Below, piece after piece: positions 26,985 through 32,285 of a stretch of 64,000 bases of DNA (position 1 is the first letter of the stretch; each line of letters starts with the position of its first letter). Location of the stretch: contig CAVVXH010000012.1 in NCBI GenBank assembly GCA_963752155.1, positions 1 through 64,000 of the forward strand, in the 5' to 3' direction. Made by a program: the position numbers and the translations under genes. The notes under the pieces are model-generated. The model was not told the origin of the DNA, made no database searches, and saw only the letters and a list, made by a program, of their open reading frames with translations. Source of the DNA: an uncultured Parachlamydiaceae bacterium. GTDB taxonomy: Bacteria > Chlamydiota > Chlamydiia > Chlamydiales > Parachlamydiaceae.

Positions 26985-28628
26985 GTGGAACCAGCTATAA
27001 AAGTAACCGCTCCAATGCCTGAACTACAACCATTTCTTCCAAACCCGGATACCCCCTGGATGGTTAGTGCTGGACTCTTTCAGAGGGTACAGGCAGCAAA
27101 TGACGTAGGAGGCTACAAAAAGTGCCCAATCAACAGTAGTGATCCCGAATGGGCATTTATTCTTCGTTACTTTAACTGGCAAAAACCCCATAATCGCTGC
27201 ATCAAAAATGCTTACTGCATCCATAATCCAAGAGCCACCCAACAATTTGAGGGATCCATTCCAGGTTTAGAACAAGAAGCCGCCAACCCCTTCTTTGCAC
27301 CCAAATGGCAGCAGGAGGAAGATCTTCCATTGAGGCAAAAAGTCAACCAGCGCTGGCAAACCATGACGGCTCCTTATTCGCCATTTATTATTCCTGGATC
27401 CAATAAAAGAAAAGATATCTACCAAAATGTAAAAGTCCTCCCTCTATGGCATGGCACTAAAGCTGCCATCTGCAATTCCATTTGCCAAACAGGTTTTGCC
27501 TATTTCGGCAAACATCAACTCATTAAGGGAGGAACTAAAAAAGATCAAAATACAGATGTAGGCTATTTCGGTAGCGGCATTTATTTTTCCAATAGCGCAA
27601 GCTATGGGGCAGATATCTATAGCGATGGTAACATCTTCCTTGCTTGGGTTTCCATGCGCGACCCCTATCCTGTAGTCGCCAATGTAGCATGCAGACCCCC
27701 AAATAAGCCCAAAGATATGGAGAAACTCGAAGGACTCGGCGCCTATCTAAACTATAATGCTCACTATATTCCCGTCATCTCGATCAATCCAGCCAACAAA
27801 TCATGTGCAGTCTACTATCCTTGTAGCACCAACCAAGAACCGATGTGTGATGAAATTGTCGTTTTTCAAAAATCTCAAACACTTCCCAGATTTTGGCTAG
27901 AGTTAGATATTGAGCTTCCAAAAAACCCCACAGAAGCGAAAGCTACGATAGGAACCCTGCTCCAAAAAGTATTAGACCTGATTGAATCTGAAGAGGTCAA
28001 ACAAGACCCAAATCTAATCAAGATACTCACAGAGAAGGCCAACATTCTGATTATCTTAGACTCCAACCAAACCATACCAGCTCAAGAGCAGGAATTTTGT
28101 CTCTGGGCTATGCAGCTACTCGATCAAACCGGCAAAGTCAGAAACTTTGTTGGTAAAAAACTTCTTGGAATGCAAGCAACATCACCTATTCAACAAGTTC
28201 CAAGCAATAGCGGTTACGTCCTTAAAACAGAAACAGTTACAAATAAGTCGGCTTCATTGGCTTTAAAGCCATTACCTCCAAACCCCTCGGAACAAGCAGA
28301 AGCGATGTACGATTACACCAGTCAAGATGACAATATGTTATCCTTCAAAAGAGGAGATCAAATCAACATACTACAAAAAACAGGAGATTGGTGGATGGGG
28401 GAATTAAAGGGGAAGAGAGGTTATGTTCCTTCTAATTTTGTCCAATTAGTCCGGCCCCGACTTCCCACGCTTCCACAAAAGTCTGTTTCACCTAAAGTAC
28501 AAGTCGTTCATCTGCCAAGCAAATGTACCCAAACACTGAAGGGACATTGTGTGAATGCCCTAGTCCAGCTTGCCGATGGGACCTTGGCTAGTGGATCCGA
28601 TGATCAGACTATCATGCTTTGGCAATAG
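26985..28628 (+). CDS. PARP-like ADP-ribosyltransferase + SH3 + single residual WD40 (copy 1)
   Basis: LWHGT, GYFGSGIYFS, DEIVVF; SH3 AMYDY...LSFKRGD...DWWMGELKGKRGYVPSNFV. Confidence 0.75.
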   Translation: MEPAIKVTAPMPELQPFLPNPDTPWMVSAGLFQRVQAANDVGGYKKCPINSSDPEWAFILRYFNWQKPHNRCIKNAYCIHNPRATQQFEGSIPGLEQEAANPFFAPKWQQEEDLPLRQKVNQRWQTMTAPYSPFIIPGSNKRKDIYQNVKVLPLWHGTKAAICNSICQTGFAYFGKHQLIKGGTKKDQNTDVGYFGSGIYFSNSASYGADIYSDGNIFLAWVSMRDPYPVVANVACRPPNKPKDMEKLEGLGAYLNYNAHYIPVISINPANKSCAVYYPCSTNQEPMCDEIVVFQKSQTLPRFWLELDIELPKNPTEAKATIGTLLQKVLDLIESEEVKQDPNLIKILTEKANILIILDSNQTIPAQEQEFCLWAMQLLDQTGKVRNFVGKKLLGMQATSPIQQVPSNSGYVLKTETVTNKSASLALKPLPPNPSEQAEAMYDYTSQDDNMLSFKRGDQINILQKTGDWWMGELKGKRGYVPSNFVQLVRPRLPTLPQKSVSPKVQVVHLPSKCTQTLKGHCVNALVQLADGTLASGSDDQTIMLWQ

Positions 28629-28925
28629 ATTAGGAACATTGTATGGGCGCTTTCTAGTTGACAAAAGATCAACCTTAGCCCGAGTAGGAGGGAATATGTA
28701 GATGAAAGCAAGGGTGTCCGAAGAAACCGTGTGAGGTAGCATAACAATTGAATACAACGTGTCATAAACGGCCAATGAGGAGGCTAAAGCAAGGATGATT
28801 AAAGACGATTAAAAGTCTCCGTTCAGATTTTAAATGGCGTCTTGCGTTTTTCAATTATCACGCAAATTTTGGCAATTTCTGCTAATTTGGGTATAAACAA
28901 AGGAAATTTTGTAAAGAGTTTGCAT

Positions 28926-29601: not shown

Positions 29602-29759
29602 TTGAGTTCGGATAAACGCAAAAAATCGCCACAGATATCAACGCAGGACTGCAATATCTGCATCAAAATAACTATTTTTGCAATTGCAAAAAAAGTCTTG
29701 CAGTTATTAAACTTTGTTAAAAACTATGTGAGACAGATAAGCAAAAAAGGAAGGCTCTA

Positions 29760-32285
29760 ATGGAACCAGCTATAAAAGTAACCGCTCCAATGCCTGAACT
29801 ACAACCAGTTCTTCCAAACCCGGATACCCCCTGGATGGTTAGTGCTGGACTCTTTCAGAGGGTACAGGCAGAAAATGACCTAGGAGGCTACAAAAAGTGC
29901 CTAATCAACAGGAGTGATCCCGAATGGGCATTTATTCTTCGTTACTTTAACTGGCAGAAACCCCATAATCGCTGCATCAAAAATGCTTACTGCATCCATA
30001 ATCCAGGAGCTACCAAACAATTTGAGGGATCCATTCCAGGTTTAGAAAATGAAGCCGATAACCCCTTCTTTGCACCTAAATGGCAGGAGGAGGACGATCT
30101 TCCATTGAGGCAAAAAGTCAACCAGCGCTGGCAAACCATGACGGCTCCTTATTCGCCATTTATTATTCCTGGATCCAATAAAAGAAAAGATATCTACGAA
30201 AATGTAAAAGTCCTCCCTCTATGGCACGGCACTAAAGCTGCCATCTGCAATTCCATTTGCCAAACAGGTTTTGCCTATTTCGGCAAACATCAACTCATTA
30301 AGGGAGGAACTAAAAAAGATCAAAATACAGATGTAGGCTATTTCGGTAGCGGCATTTATTTTTCCAATAGCGCAAGCTATGGGGCAGATATCTACAGCGA
30401 TGGTAACATCTTCCTTGCTTGGGTTTCCATGCGCGACCCCTATCCTGTAGTCGCCAATGTAGCATGCAGACCCCCAAATAAGCCCAAAGATATGGAGAAA
30501 CTCGAAGGACTCGGCGCCTATCAAAACTATAATGCTCACTATATTCCCGTCATCTCGATCAATCCAGCCAACAAATCATGTGCAGTCTATTATCCTTGTA
30601 GCACCAACCAAGAACCGATGTGTGATGAAATTGTCGTTTTTCAAAAATCTCAAACCCTTCCCAGATTTTGGCTAGAGTTAGATATTGAGCTTCCAAAAAA
30701 CCCCACAGAAGCGAAAGCTACGATAGGAACCCTGCTCCAAAAAGTATTAGACCTGATTGAATCTGAAGAGGTCAAACAAGACCCAAATCTAATCAAGATA
30801 CTCACAGAGAAGGCCAACATTCTGATTATCTTAGACTCCAACCAAACCATACCAGCTCAAGAGCAGGAATTTTGTCTCTGGGCTATGCAGCTACTCGATC
30901 AAACCGGCAAAGTCAGAAACTTTGTTGGTAAAAAACTTCTTGGAATGCAAGCAACATCACCTATTCAACAAGTTCCAAGCAATAGCGGTTACGTCCTTAA
31001 AACAGAAACAGTTACAAATAAGTCGGCTTCATTAGCTTTAAAGCCGTTACCTCCAAACCCCTCCGAACAGGCAGAAGCGATGTACGATTACACCAGTCAA
31101 GATGACAATATGTTATCCTTCAAAAGAGAAGATCAAATCAACATACTACAAAAAACAAGAGATTGGAGGAGGGGGGAATTAAAGGGGAAGACAGGTTATG
31201 TTCCTTCTAATTTTGTCCAATTAGACCGGACCCGACTTTCCAAACCTTCACAAAAGTCTGTCTCACCTAAAGTACAAGTCGTTCATCTGCCAAAAAAATG
31301 TACCCCAACATTGAAGGGGCATGCAGATGATGTGCATGCACTAGTCCAGCTTGCCGATGGGACTTTGGCCAGTGGATCTTTGGACAATAGCATCAAGCTG
31401 TGGGATCCTCTGTCTGGTTCCCTCAAATGCACCTTGCAAGGTCATACAGCTGGTGTGAGAGCCCTAGTCCGGCTTGCCGATGGGACCTTGGCGAGTCTTT
31501 CTTGGGACAAGACCATCAAGCTGTGGGATCCTCTGTCTGGTTCCCTCAAACGCACCTTGCAAGGGCATACAGATGATGTGCATGCCCTAGTCCAGCTTGC
31601 CGATGGAACCTTGGCCAGTGGATCTAAGGATAAGACTATCAAGCTGTGGGATCCTCTGTCTGGTTCCCTCAAACGCACCTTGCAAGGGCATACAGCTTGT
31701 GTGAGAGTCCTTGTCCAGCTTGCCGATGGGACCTTGGCCAGTGGATCCGATGATCAGACTATCAAGCTGTGGGATCCTCTGTCTGGTTCCCTCAAACGCA
31801 CTTTGCCAGGGCATACAGGTGTGTATACTTCGTATGCTGTGTATGCTCTAGTCCAGCTTGCCGATGGGATCTTGGCCAGTGGATCTAACGATAACACTAT
31901 CAAGCTGTGGGATCCTCTGTCTGGTTCTCTCAAACGCACCTTGCAAGGGCATACAGCTTGTATTAGAGCCCTAGTCCAGCTTGCTGATGGGACCTTGGCC
32001 AGTGTTTCTTGGGACACGACCATCAAGCTGTGGGATCCTCTGTCTGGTTCCCTTAAACGCACCTTGCAAGGGCATACAGCTTGTGTGTATGCTCTAGTCC
32101 AGCTTGCTGATGGGACCTTGGCCAGTGGATCTAACGACAATAGCATCAAGCTGTGGGATCCTCTGTCTGGTTCCCTCAAACGCACCTTGCAAGAGCATAC
32201 AGATGGTGTGAATGCCCTCGTCCAGCTTGCCGATGGGACCTTGGCCAGTGGTTCTTCTGACAAGACCATCAAGCTTTGGCAATAG
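29760..32285 (+). CDS. PARP-like ADP-ribosyltransferase + degenerate SH3 + 8 WD40 repeats (copy 2)
   Basis: Near-identical to copy 1 over ~510 aa, followed by GH...LASGS.D.TIKLWD repeats. Confidence 0.8.
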   Translation: MEPAIKVTAPMPELQPVLPNPDTPWMVSAGLFQRVQAENDLGGYKKCLINRSDPEWAFILRYFNWQKPHNRCIKNAYCIHNPGATKQFEGSIPGLENEADNPFFAPKWQEEDDLPLRQKVNQRWQTMTAPYSPFIIPGSNKRKDIYENVKVLPLWHGTKAAICNSICQTGFAYFGKHQLIKGGTKKDQNTDVGYFGSGIYFSNSASYGADIYSDGNIFLAWVSMRDPYPVVANVACRPPNKPKDMEKLEGLGAYQNYNAHYIPVISINPANKSCAVYYPCSTNQEPMCDEIVVFQKSQTLPRFWLELDIELPKNPTEAKATIGTLLQKVLDLIESEEVKQDPNLIKILTEKANILIILDSNQTIPAQEQEFCLWAMQLLDQTGKVRNFVGKKLLGMQATSPIQQVPSNSGYVLKTETVTNKSASLALKPLPPNPSEQAEAMYDYTSQDDNMLSFKREDQINILQKTRDWRRGELKGKTGYVPSNFVQLDRTRLSKPSQKSVSPKVQVVHLPKKCTPTLKGHADDVHALVQLADGTLASGSLDNSIKLWDPLSGSLKCTLQGHTAGVRALVRLADGTLASLSWDKTIKLWDPLSGSLKRTLQGHTDDVHALVQLADGTLASGSKDKTIKLWDPLSGSLKRTLQGHTACVRVLVQLADGTLASGSDDQTIKLWDPLSGSLKRTLPGHTGVYTSYAVYALVQLADGILASGSNDNTIKLWDPLSGSLKRTLQGHTACIRALVQLADGTLASVSWDTTIKLWDPLSGSLKRTLQGHTACVYALVQLADGTLASGSNDNSIKLWDPLSGSLKRTLQEHTDGVNALVQLADGTLASGSSDKTIKLWQ
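31311..32282 (+). repeat. Tandem 123-bp WD40-encoding repeats (8 units)
   Basis: aagctgtgggatcctctgtctggttc recurs at a 123-bp period (31395, 31518, ...); unit 5 has a 5-codon insertion. Confidence 0.95.

Follow-up and report, generated by a model that had tools for sequence, protein, structure and literature searches.

What would a bacterium do with a protein that joins the catalytic domain of a eukaryotic-type PARP to an SH3 domain and WD40 repeats? We addressed this question for positions 26985-32285 of a 64,000-nucleotide stretch of contig CAVVXH010000012.1, which comes from an uncultured Parachlamydiaceae bacterium (the whole stretch is referred to here as the window). An earlier note had described the interval as one gene for a PARP-like ADP-ribosyltransferase (ART) fused to eukaryotic SH3 and WD40 domains, and as a host-directed effector. 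The single-gene description was wrong: the interval holds two tandem paralogs, copy A and copy B, both on the + strand, which arose by recent tandem duplication of a single gene from a large family of modular chlamydial proteins. We consider it moderately likely that the product is a secreted, host-directed ADP-ribosylating effector, whose secretion, activity, and target we infer from the results described below, and that family probably tags host proteins with ADP-ribose.

Two tandem genes and their PARP-type head

The two genes share the same order of parts, namely, the ART head, a four-helix bundle, a linker containing KPLPPNP, the SH3 domain, and WD40 repeats (eight blades in copy B and one in copy A). 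The strings quoted in the earlier note (LWHGT, ICQTGF, GYFGSGIYFS, DEIVVF, and KPLPPNP) were all present in the translations of both copies, where it had placed them. The copies are 94% identical across 547 amino acids, and the roughly 1.1 kb between them includes a palindromic repeat element. They form the cores of two duplicated units in tandem (26889-29431 and 29664-33051), each of which ends in the palindromic element, and blastn aligned 26889-28597 with 29664-31378 at 96.7% identity. The features, with the evidence for each, were as follows.

26889..26984, + strand: start of unit A, shared 96-nt upstream region with an AGGAGG ribosome-binding site before the GTG (blastn, sequence read)
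26985..28628, + strand: copy A, GTG start, 547 amino acids (open reading frame [ORF] and translation; Pfam PARP, SH3_1, and WD40, the last in 1 stretch)
27012-27929, + strand: copy A ART head, residues 10-315
28290-28454, + strand: copy A SH3, residues 436-490, WW dipeptide intact (SH3_1, 54.4 bits)
28509-28625, + strand: copy A single chimeric WD40 blade
28926..29464, no strand: palindromic element after copy A, about 540 nt, resembling a miniature inverted-repeat transposable element (MITE); inverted arms of 117 nt with 100% identity
29664..29759, + strand: start of unit B, upstream region with an AGGAAGG ribosome-binding site (blastn)
29760..32285, + strand: copy B, ATG start, 841 amino acids, full-length gene (ORF, Pfam)
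29787..30704, + strand: copy B PARP-type ART head, residues 10-315 (PF00644, AlphaFold model, VIA-align)
30225-30227, 30357-30359, and 30627-30629, + strand: candidate catalytic codons of copy B for H156, Y200, and E290, respectively
30714..30965, + strand: copy B four-helix bundle, residues 319-402 (AlphaFold model)
31041..31061, + strand: copy B KPLPPNP, residues 428-434, in a disordered linker (sequence)
31065..31229, + strand: copy B eukaryote-type SH3, residues 436-490 (SH3_1, 42.1 bits)
31284..32282, + strand: copy B eight WD40 repeats, residues 509-841, predicted eight-bladed beta-propeller (Tandem Repeats Finder [TRF], repeats, model)
32586..33051, no strand: second, partial palindromic element and end of unit B (blastn, repeat search)

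The assignment of the N-terminal domain was examined with profile and structure searches. The Pfam profile PF00644 matched copy B with an E value of 4e-8 and a score of 33.4 bits (curated cut-off, 26.7 bits) and aligned residues 152-307 with profile positions 50-197 of 199. Copy A scored 31.5 bits. In a whole-genome scan, the two copies scored 34.6 and 33.4 bits, and no further PF00644 gene was found. PF00644 was the only Pfam match within residues 1-430 at E<=0.01; no WGR, zinc-finger, PARP regulatory, or NTPase (STAND) domain was detected there, and Pfam found no SidE-type phosphodiesterase (PDE) in either copy. A search of NCBIfam with the protein gave nothing relevant, the one match being a sub-threshold chance match to methylglyoxal synthase inside a WD40 repeat. 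When a profile of 59 family members was compared with PDB sequences, PARP14 was matched with an E value of 8e-4, and the alignment covered the N-terminal sub-domain (residues 40-102) and the Tyr motif.

The AlphaFold model of the head, for which the family alignment served as input, had a predicted local distance difference test (pLDDT) score of 89.2 and a predicted template modeling (pTM) score of 0.76. A Foldseek search of the PDB with this model placed the PARP1 catalytic domain first (E 1.9e-10) and returned 361 matches at E<=0.001. In an exhaustive VIA-align pass over 48,161 chains, the best match was PARP15 (Z 17.8; root mean square deviation [rmsd], 2.4 Å; 174 residues; model range, 26-309), and further matches included PARP10 (Z 17.4), PARP13 and tankyrase-2 (both 17.3), PARP1 (16.3), and PARP4 (16.0). 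Z scores ranged from 17.8 to 15.3 over 12 PARP entries, compared with 6.3 for diphtheria toxin, 5.8 for exotoxin A, and 5.0 for ParT and MbcT. Thus, the predicted fold of the head is specifically PARP-like. The AlphaFold-Foldseek check that the earlier note had proposed therefore yielded a high-confidence PARP-type model, and the ART assignment of the head is strongly supported by the profile matches and the predicted structure.

The note had also named the H-Y-E triad of the PARP clade, and we located it as H156, Y200, and E290 in both copies. Among near-complete family heads, Y200 was present in 213 of 213, E290 in 211, and H156 in 201, with all three residues in 200 of the 213; the 59-sequence alignment agreed with these counts. 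Judged by motif, profile range, family invariance, and strand position, the three residues are the predicted counterparts of the PARP triad. A helical insertion of about 45 residues (approximately residues 100-148) lies ahead of the strand that carries the His and is specific to the family.

The closest structural counterparts are the eukaryotic mono-ART PARPs. PARP14, PARP15, PARP10, and PARP13 have the same predicted fold as the chlamydial head (Z 17.3-17.8; rmsd, 2.4 Å; 165-174 residues) and share with it the HG[ST] and GxGxYF motifs and a C-terminal acidic residue. The chlamydial head differs in that it is bacterial, N-terminal, and carries the roughly 45-residue insertion and a full H-Y-E triad; identity is just 16-22%, and macro, WWE, and zinc-finger partners are absent from the chlamydial proteins. 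At the third triad place, the human PARP14, PARP15, PARP10, and PARP13 have Leu or Ile. In our view, mono-transfer of ADP-ribose is more likely than polymer synthesis for the chlamydial head.

These comparisons bear on the idea that the protein is a housekeeping DNA-damage PARP that makes poly(ADP-ribose) inside the bacterium, in the manner of WGR-PARP proteins. The complete H-Y-E triad and the strong structural matches to PARP1-3 (Z 15.7-16.3) fit this idea, which we nevertheless regard as highly improbable: the WGR, zinc-finger, and PARP regulatory domains are missing from Pfam results, the best profile and structure matches are the mono-ART proteins PARP14, PARP15, PARP10, and PARP13, the tail consists of SH3 and WD40 domains, and a genome can hold up to 17 or more paralogs. 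Moreover, the 28 bacterial PARPs from 27 species surveyed by Perina et al. (2014; PMC4245714) were mostly WGR plus PARP proteins, and the word "chlamydia" is absent from the text of that paper.

A chlamydial family with one head and many partners

An exhaustive HMMER search over 1.84 billion cluster representatives found 782 representatives at E<=1e-3, 495 at E<=1e-10, and 206 at E<=1e-30, with lengths of 128-2,237 amino acids. The named sources were metagenome-assembled genomes (MAGs) labeled Parachlamydiaceae, Parachlamydiales, Rhabdochlamydiaceae, Simkaniaceae, Chlamydiales, and Chlamydiae, together with a few labeled "Verrucomicrobia" or "bacterium"; all of the taxon-specific labels in the family were chlamydial. 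In their sources, the relatives were named "hypothetical," "SH3 domain-containing," "WD40 repeat," or "SEL1-like," and never ART.

The head is constant, and its partner domains are swapped. In 192 of 213 proteins, it begins no later than residue 60. Partner domains were tallied by hand from precomputed Pfam lists for the best 120 of 168 matches in the 462-1,472-amino-acid band, with overlapping categories. Among these 120, PF00644 stood alone in 67 proteins and was accompanied by ankyrin repeats in 18, Sel1/TPR repeats in 11, SidE_PDE in 10, WD40 repeats in 7, leucine-rich repeats (LRR) in 5, and SH3 in 2; 3 proteins were without a Pfam domain. In the seed search, which comprised 233 proteins (232 relatives and copy B), ankyrin repeats were found in 41, WD40 repeats in 12, a PDE in 12, and SH3 in 3. 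The combination of ART, SH3, and WD40 occurred just in the window's two genes among these 233 proteins, so the remark in the earlier note that the architecture was unfamiliar was borne out. The four-helix bundle was found by phmmer in 84 of 232 family proteins.

In a FastTree phylogeny of 213 heads, whose supports are approximate, copies A and B were sisters (support 100) inside a supported six-row group that includes P0155 and a ten-row group that includes P0157. P0155 has the same head and bundle with eight WD40 repeats and without SH3, and it is 47% identical overall. P0157 is the other SH3-bearing relative. Along the head tree, partners changed 19 times for ankyrin, 5 times for WD40, 4 times for the PDE, and 2 times for SH3. 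The C-terminal tails of P0157 (approximately residues 505-530) and P0184 (approximately residues 640-665) share a W..YFGD.G.EPPLP stretch, hinting at a further unnamed family module.

The partner domains are relevant to the proposal that the head acts on a non-protein substrate, such as a nucleic-acid end or a small molecule, while the tail merely localizes the enzyme. Neither the ART fold nor the triad dictates which acceptor is used, and several PARP-clade enzymes modify nucleic-acid ends. We find this proposal unlikely, however, because SH3, WD40, ankyrin, Sel1, and LRR are protein-protein modules, nothing in the tail hints at binding of nucleic acids, and the PDE fusions parallel a protein-directed system.

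That system is the SidE family of Legionella. A SidE-type PDE lies directly upstream of the PARP-type head in 12 of the 233 family proteins (P0184, P0024, P0194, P0204, P0208, P0209, P0210, P0223, P0033, P0228, P0105, and P0047), and the heads of these relatives are about 50-53% identical to the window's head. In P0184, whose head is 52% identical and stands immediately behind the PDE, the SidE_PDE match was full length (E 1.8e-40). The P0184 PDE aligned to SdeD, lpg1496, SdeA, and SidE with E values from 3e-17 to 3e-12 (3e-17 to 4e-13 for the first three), and the catalytic-His stretch RPxHGLxHTxR was intact. The PDE-then-ART order is also that of the Legionella proteins SdeA, SidE, and SdeC, which combine a PDE with a mono-ART (mART) domain; the SidE mART is of the R-S-E type. 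The ART partner in the chlamydial relatives, in contrast, is PARP-type H-Y-E, and the window's own two genes are without the PDE. The SidE_PDE profile had no match in the window's genome, which is 80% complete, and control genomes likewise gave none. By analogy, the head may be a PARP-type counterpart of the SidE mART, whose ADP-ribosylation of ubiquitin, or of a different host protein, would initiate a PDE-coupled, phosphoribosyl-linked modification, although we regard this as doubtful. If it holds, the PDE-less SH3/WD40 forms would be re-addressed versions of the PDE-ART chemistry, and non-canonical modification of the SidE kind would have arisen twice, the second time with an H-Y-E scaffold, and would be widespread among environmental chlamydiae. 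Passages of a 2026 review of ubiquitin-directed effectors treat phosphoribosyl ubiquitination as a Legionella SidE system (PMC13720258).

The distribution of the family is patchy and includes tandem arrays. In an even sample of 401 genomes from the window's phylum, the head was present in 28, all of them in the window's order, and in 2 of 46 genomes of its own family. The closest relatives (61-63% identity) belong to other families, and a same-genus genome reaches 45%. One chlamydial MAG of 2.6 Mb contains at least 17 dispersed paralogs of 1,290-1,630+ amino acids with the ART head, which are 46-93% mutually identical (loci L049, L052, L055-L058, L060, L061, L063-L068, L075, L076, and L079). 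Seventeen paralogs are a very large expansion for a genome of this size. When ORFs were clustered over 73 related loci to look for a shared neighbor or an immunity gene, the clusters were mostly alternative-frame ORFs within ART genes and paralogous tails.

The docking tail and its divergence since duplication

The tail of copy B was covered by the head model up to the bundle and by a second AlphaFold model (residues 396-841; pLDDT, 85.3). The bundle helices (residues 322-334, 342-356, 366-376, and 387-399) were modeled at pLDDT >90. A search for the identity of the bundle (residues 319-402) gave MLKL and designed bundles as the best matches, with Z scores of 5-6.3, which is the noise level for helical bundles, and these candidates were rejected. 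Residues 403-435 are disordered and end in KPLPPNP.

The SH3 domain is of the eukaryotic type, as the earlier note had stated. SH3_1 matched copy A with an E value of 1e-14 and 54.4 bits and copy B with an E value of 6e-11 and 42.1 bits (cut-off, 22.9 bits). Comparison with PDB sequences gave 325 matches at E<=0.001, and the best were GRB2 (E 3e-17, whole chain) and myosin IB of the Entamoeba/Acanthamoeba, or amoeboid myosin I, type (E 2e-11). When the copy A SH3 was compared with longer proteins, just the window's protein and one animal protein (E 5e-4) were returned by a word index that is insensitive for a 75-amino-acid query. In the second model, the five SH3 strands had a pLDDT of about 89, and linker residues 491-511 were disordered.

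The KPLPPNP motif itself is plainly readable in the translations. It fits the class I +xxPxxP pattern, as the earlier note had stated, but the basic residue is not kept in the relative P0157, which is 53% identical and has TPLPSTP with the same spacing before its SH3; thus, PLPxxP is conserved and the basic residue is not. Tec-family kinases have KPLPPTP beside their SH3 domain. The chlamydial motif is near-identical to this one and likewise lies just N-terminal to an SH3, and it differs in its five-residue spacing, its undocked state in the model, and the loss of the Lys in P0157. The idea that the motif regulates its own SH3 intramolecularly gained no support: KPLPPNP has a pLDDT of <50 in the SH3-containing model, where it thus appears undocked, its Lys is lost in P0157, and just five residues lie between the end of the motif and the start of the domain. 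Binding in trans, or to SH3 proteins of the host, is just as conceivable for KPLPPNP.

The Pfam WD40 profile matched copy B with an E value of 5.8e-64 in 8 stretches, and TRF reported a period of 123 with 7.5 copies. The array comprises eight 41-amino-acid repeats (one of 46 amino acids) with pairwise identities of 57-88%, and the second model contained 32 propeller strands at pLDDT 94-98. The best structure match was the designed eight-bladed propeller Tako8 (template modeling score, 0.94; rmsd, 1.8 Å; 44% identity), followed by ODA16, Rsa4, and Fbw7, which are also eight-bladed. The array was thus of the highly repetitive kind, with a designed propeller as the best match and prokaryotic repetitive propellers among the matches, and calling it specifically eukaryotic, as had been done, was not justified. 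Repetitive prokaryotic and eight-bladed WD40 propellers share the blade count of copy B, whose own propeller is distinguished by its fusion behind an ART and an SH3. The array of copy B is predicted to close into a propeller, which the single blade of copy A would not do.

Copy A is 882 nt shorter than copy B. The difference is in frame, with blade 1 fused to blade 8; copy A lost seven blades by unequal recombination within the repeat array. Of the 520 aligned codons, 41 differ, and the differences are unevenly distributed. Residues 151-436, which include the head core and bundle (286 codons), have 1 nonsynonymous and 7 synonymous differences, which corresponds to a nonsynonymous-to-synonymous rate ratio (dN/dS) of 0.04. 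The corresponding values are 13, 4, and 0.83 for residues 2-150 and 11, 2, and 1.44 for residues 437-500 (SH3). All codons outside 151-436 together have 27 nonsynonymous and 9 synonymous differences (core versus rest, Fisher p 0.0019); the counts are small, and the contrast is strong. The catalytic enzyme has been conserved and the docking "address" has been changing since the duplication. In the SH3 sequence, copy A has GDWWMG, which keeps the WW pair, and copy B has RDWRRG. On this sequence evidence, copy A appears to keep the better SH3 and copy B the propeller, with its SH3 drifting, and the copies look like two targeting variants of one enzyme.

The same differences could be taken to mean that the locus is decaying, with copy A and perhaps copy B a non-functional remnant, or that the tandem pair is an assembly artifact of two strain alleles. 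Copy A keeps one of eight blades and is unable to form a propeller alone, the WW pair in the SH3 of copy B is missing its second Trp, and this domain scores 42 bits versus 54 in copy A, a MITE-like element lies behind each copy, and the contig has other signs of assembly error or decay, with no bridging piece from public reads. We consider this explanation rather unlikely as a whole. Each copy has an open frame preceded by a ribosome-binding site, the loss of blades kept the frame, and the two units are flanked differently (by RecQ at one end and by phosphopantetheinyl transferase at the other). In addition, the dN/dS of 0.04 over the 286 codons of the head and bundle points to selection on both copies since the split. 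The copy A tail itself may be decaying.

The signs just mentioned come from a 3.13-Mb genome in 22 contigs. Positions 1-2080 of the window have 72.6% GC content and broken frames, abut chlamydial DNA of 30-45% GC, and have no Pfam match; this part probably reflects contamination or a chimeric join in the assembly. The Mfd gene is broken into two ORFs (38932-42203, +), and an RNB-domain gene is truncated (20442-21155, -). These interruptions, and the one in-frame TGA in the gene for the type III export gate described below, are either assembly indel errors or gene decay. One public DNA run contained 0.20 of the sampled words and yielded 20 contig pieces, all short and of low depth, none of which bridged the copies, and no RNA run with the sequence was listed; these results say nothing on assembly or expression. 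A eukaryotic contamination as the source of the two genes was considered and ruled out, because they lie between a bacterial RecQ gene and a phosphopantetheinyl transferase gene, have ribosome-binding sites, and have chlamydial relatives only. The closest named homologs of the RecQ gene, which is immediately upstream of unit A, are from Parachlamydiaceae MAGs (80%, 65%, and 62% identity) and Candidatus Protochlamydia (53%); the phosphopantetheinyl transferase gene is downstream of unit B. The palindromic element had 152 matches in the window's own genome, with one copy behind each ART gene, and the short mirror ORFs at 28823-29155 (-) and 29328-29615 (+) fall in the element after copy A. Neither a promoter scan (11 sites versus 10.7 expected) nor a terminator scan (5 versus 7.3 expected) was informative.

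Proposed function and meaning

In the mechanism that we propose, the protein would use the chlamydial type III system to reach the cytosol of its host, a protist or another eukaryote. The variable tail would act as the address, which here would be the eukaryote-type SH3 and the eight-bladed WD40 propeller, and these would dock the protein on host partners. The head, as a PARP-type (ARTD, H-Y-E) enzyme, would then bind NAD+ and transfer ADP-ribose to the docked protein or a neighboring one. A host-directed role is plausible given the eukaryotic-type SH3, the SidE-type PDE in 12 of 233 relatives, the effector-like modularity, and the presence in the genome of the type III export gate SctV (FHIPEP, 650.8 bits, contig C10:589611-591652).

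Several points weigh against an effector. A single-sequence phmmer search of the PDB found just PARP4 (E 0.19-0.72, 23 residues around GSGIYFS), which was too weak alone, so profile and structure searches were needed. With this weak similarity, and with no residue-by-residue superposition printed, the proposed placement of H156 and E290 on the PARP triad leans on the Pfam alignment range, family invariance, and the predicted fold. Residues 11-40 are well ordered in the head model and residues 1-10 alone are disordered, which leaves just about 10 residues that could serve as a secretion signal. The patchy distribution (28 of 401 genomes, 2 of 46 in its own family) indicates that this is not a core chlamydial effector. 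The assembly problems, namely, the chimeric high-GC end and the split housekeeping genes, also count here, as does a tandem arrangement unconfirmed by reads. Finally, activity, secretion, and target are what we infer, and the layout of an enzymatic head with a repeat tail resembles, by analogy, that of bacterial immune sensors.

The last point leads to another explanation, in which the protein is a cell-autonomous immune or conflict protein of the bacterium, with an NLR-like logic: the repeat tail would sense an invader and the ART head would poison either the invader or the cell itself. The order of enzymatic head and then repeat array, a patchy distribution with expanded paralogs, and variable positions in near-identical WD40 repeats, which resemble fast-evolving sensor surfaces, are all in keeping with this explanation. 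We nevertheless judge it distinctly improbable, since Pfam found no STAND NTPase between the head and the repeats, PADLOC assigned 0 defense families to the protein, and no conserved partner gene was seen in the window (RecQ upstream; the repeat element and phosphopantetheinyl transferase downstream). Furthermore, eukaryotic targets are suggested by an SH3 of eukaryotic type and by the fusions to a SidE-type PDE, and at least 17 large paralogs in one 2.6-Mb genome do not fit an immune protein well.

The host-directed effector remains the reading that we favor, and other genes in the genome may be viewed beside it. A 669-amino-acid ORF at 33939-35948 (-), 1.6 kb from the ART pair, contains a CKSGKDRTG (CX5R) motif, which we take to be like the IpgD/SopB motif. 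It had no match in Pfam, NCBIfam, PADLOC, or the PDB. Its nearest ESM Atlas clusters are of the IpgD family (score 0.92; 190 of 256 features in common). As a lead only, this ORF is a candidate IpgD-like phosphoinositide phosphatase and a second host-directed enzyme. Elsewhere in the window, short ORFs with RHS-repeat and DUF6531 matches (13064-17313, -) resemble fragments of a polymorphic-toxin-type gene, a 487-amino-acid ORF (55746-57209, -) has an ATPase_2 (PF01637) domain, and a eukaryote-like pentatricopeptide-repeat protein (PPR_2, E 3e-198, 13 stretches) runs off the window (62117-64000, +). The one macro domain match is on another contig, unlinked to the ART locus.

Secreted ADP-ribosylating effectors are an already known kind of protein. 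AvrRpm1 of Pseudomonas syringae, whose fold has been reported to be PARP-like, and other type III ART effectors are secreted NAD+-using enzymes that modify a host protein, and the OspC family has an ART-like catalytic head with an ankyrin repeat tail that picks the target. To our knowledge, none of these effectors has an SH3 or WD40 domain, and none is a family of hundreds with swapped tails. Passages on Tox-ART-PARP toxins in Aravind et al. (2012, PMC3417536) and Zhang et al. (2012, PMC3482391), which also predict a PARP-related effector for Legionella drancourtii, embody the same concept, in that bacteria, including intracellular amoeba parasites, use a PARP-related ART against other cells. 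Compared by description rather than by sequence, those domains differ from the chlamydial heads in being C-terminal domains of PVC-delivered actinobacterial toxins or a single Legionella protein, and no chlamydial PARP-type family appears in the passages of the two papers. Literature searches, which covered open-licence full texts only, found no paper on such a family (PMC7764402 matched just through its list of references), and it is apparently undescribed.

What is different in the chlamydial family is that the scaffold is of the eukaryotic PARP type, not one of the usual bacterial toxin types, and that its hundreds of members recombine the head with almost every eukaryote-like docking module. 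The family would thus be a natural library in which one enzyme is aimed at many host targets, and it offers a test case for the proposed shared ancestry of eukaryotic PARPs and endosymbiont effectors. Its PDE fusions may mean that SidE-like chemistry originated twice. What the window's two genes contribute is a rare SH3 fusion and a view of a tail in rapid evolution, in which blades have been lost and the SH3 is changing fast next to a catalytic core that has stayed frozen.

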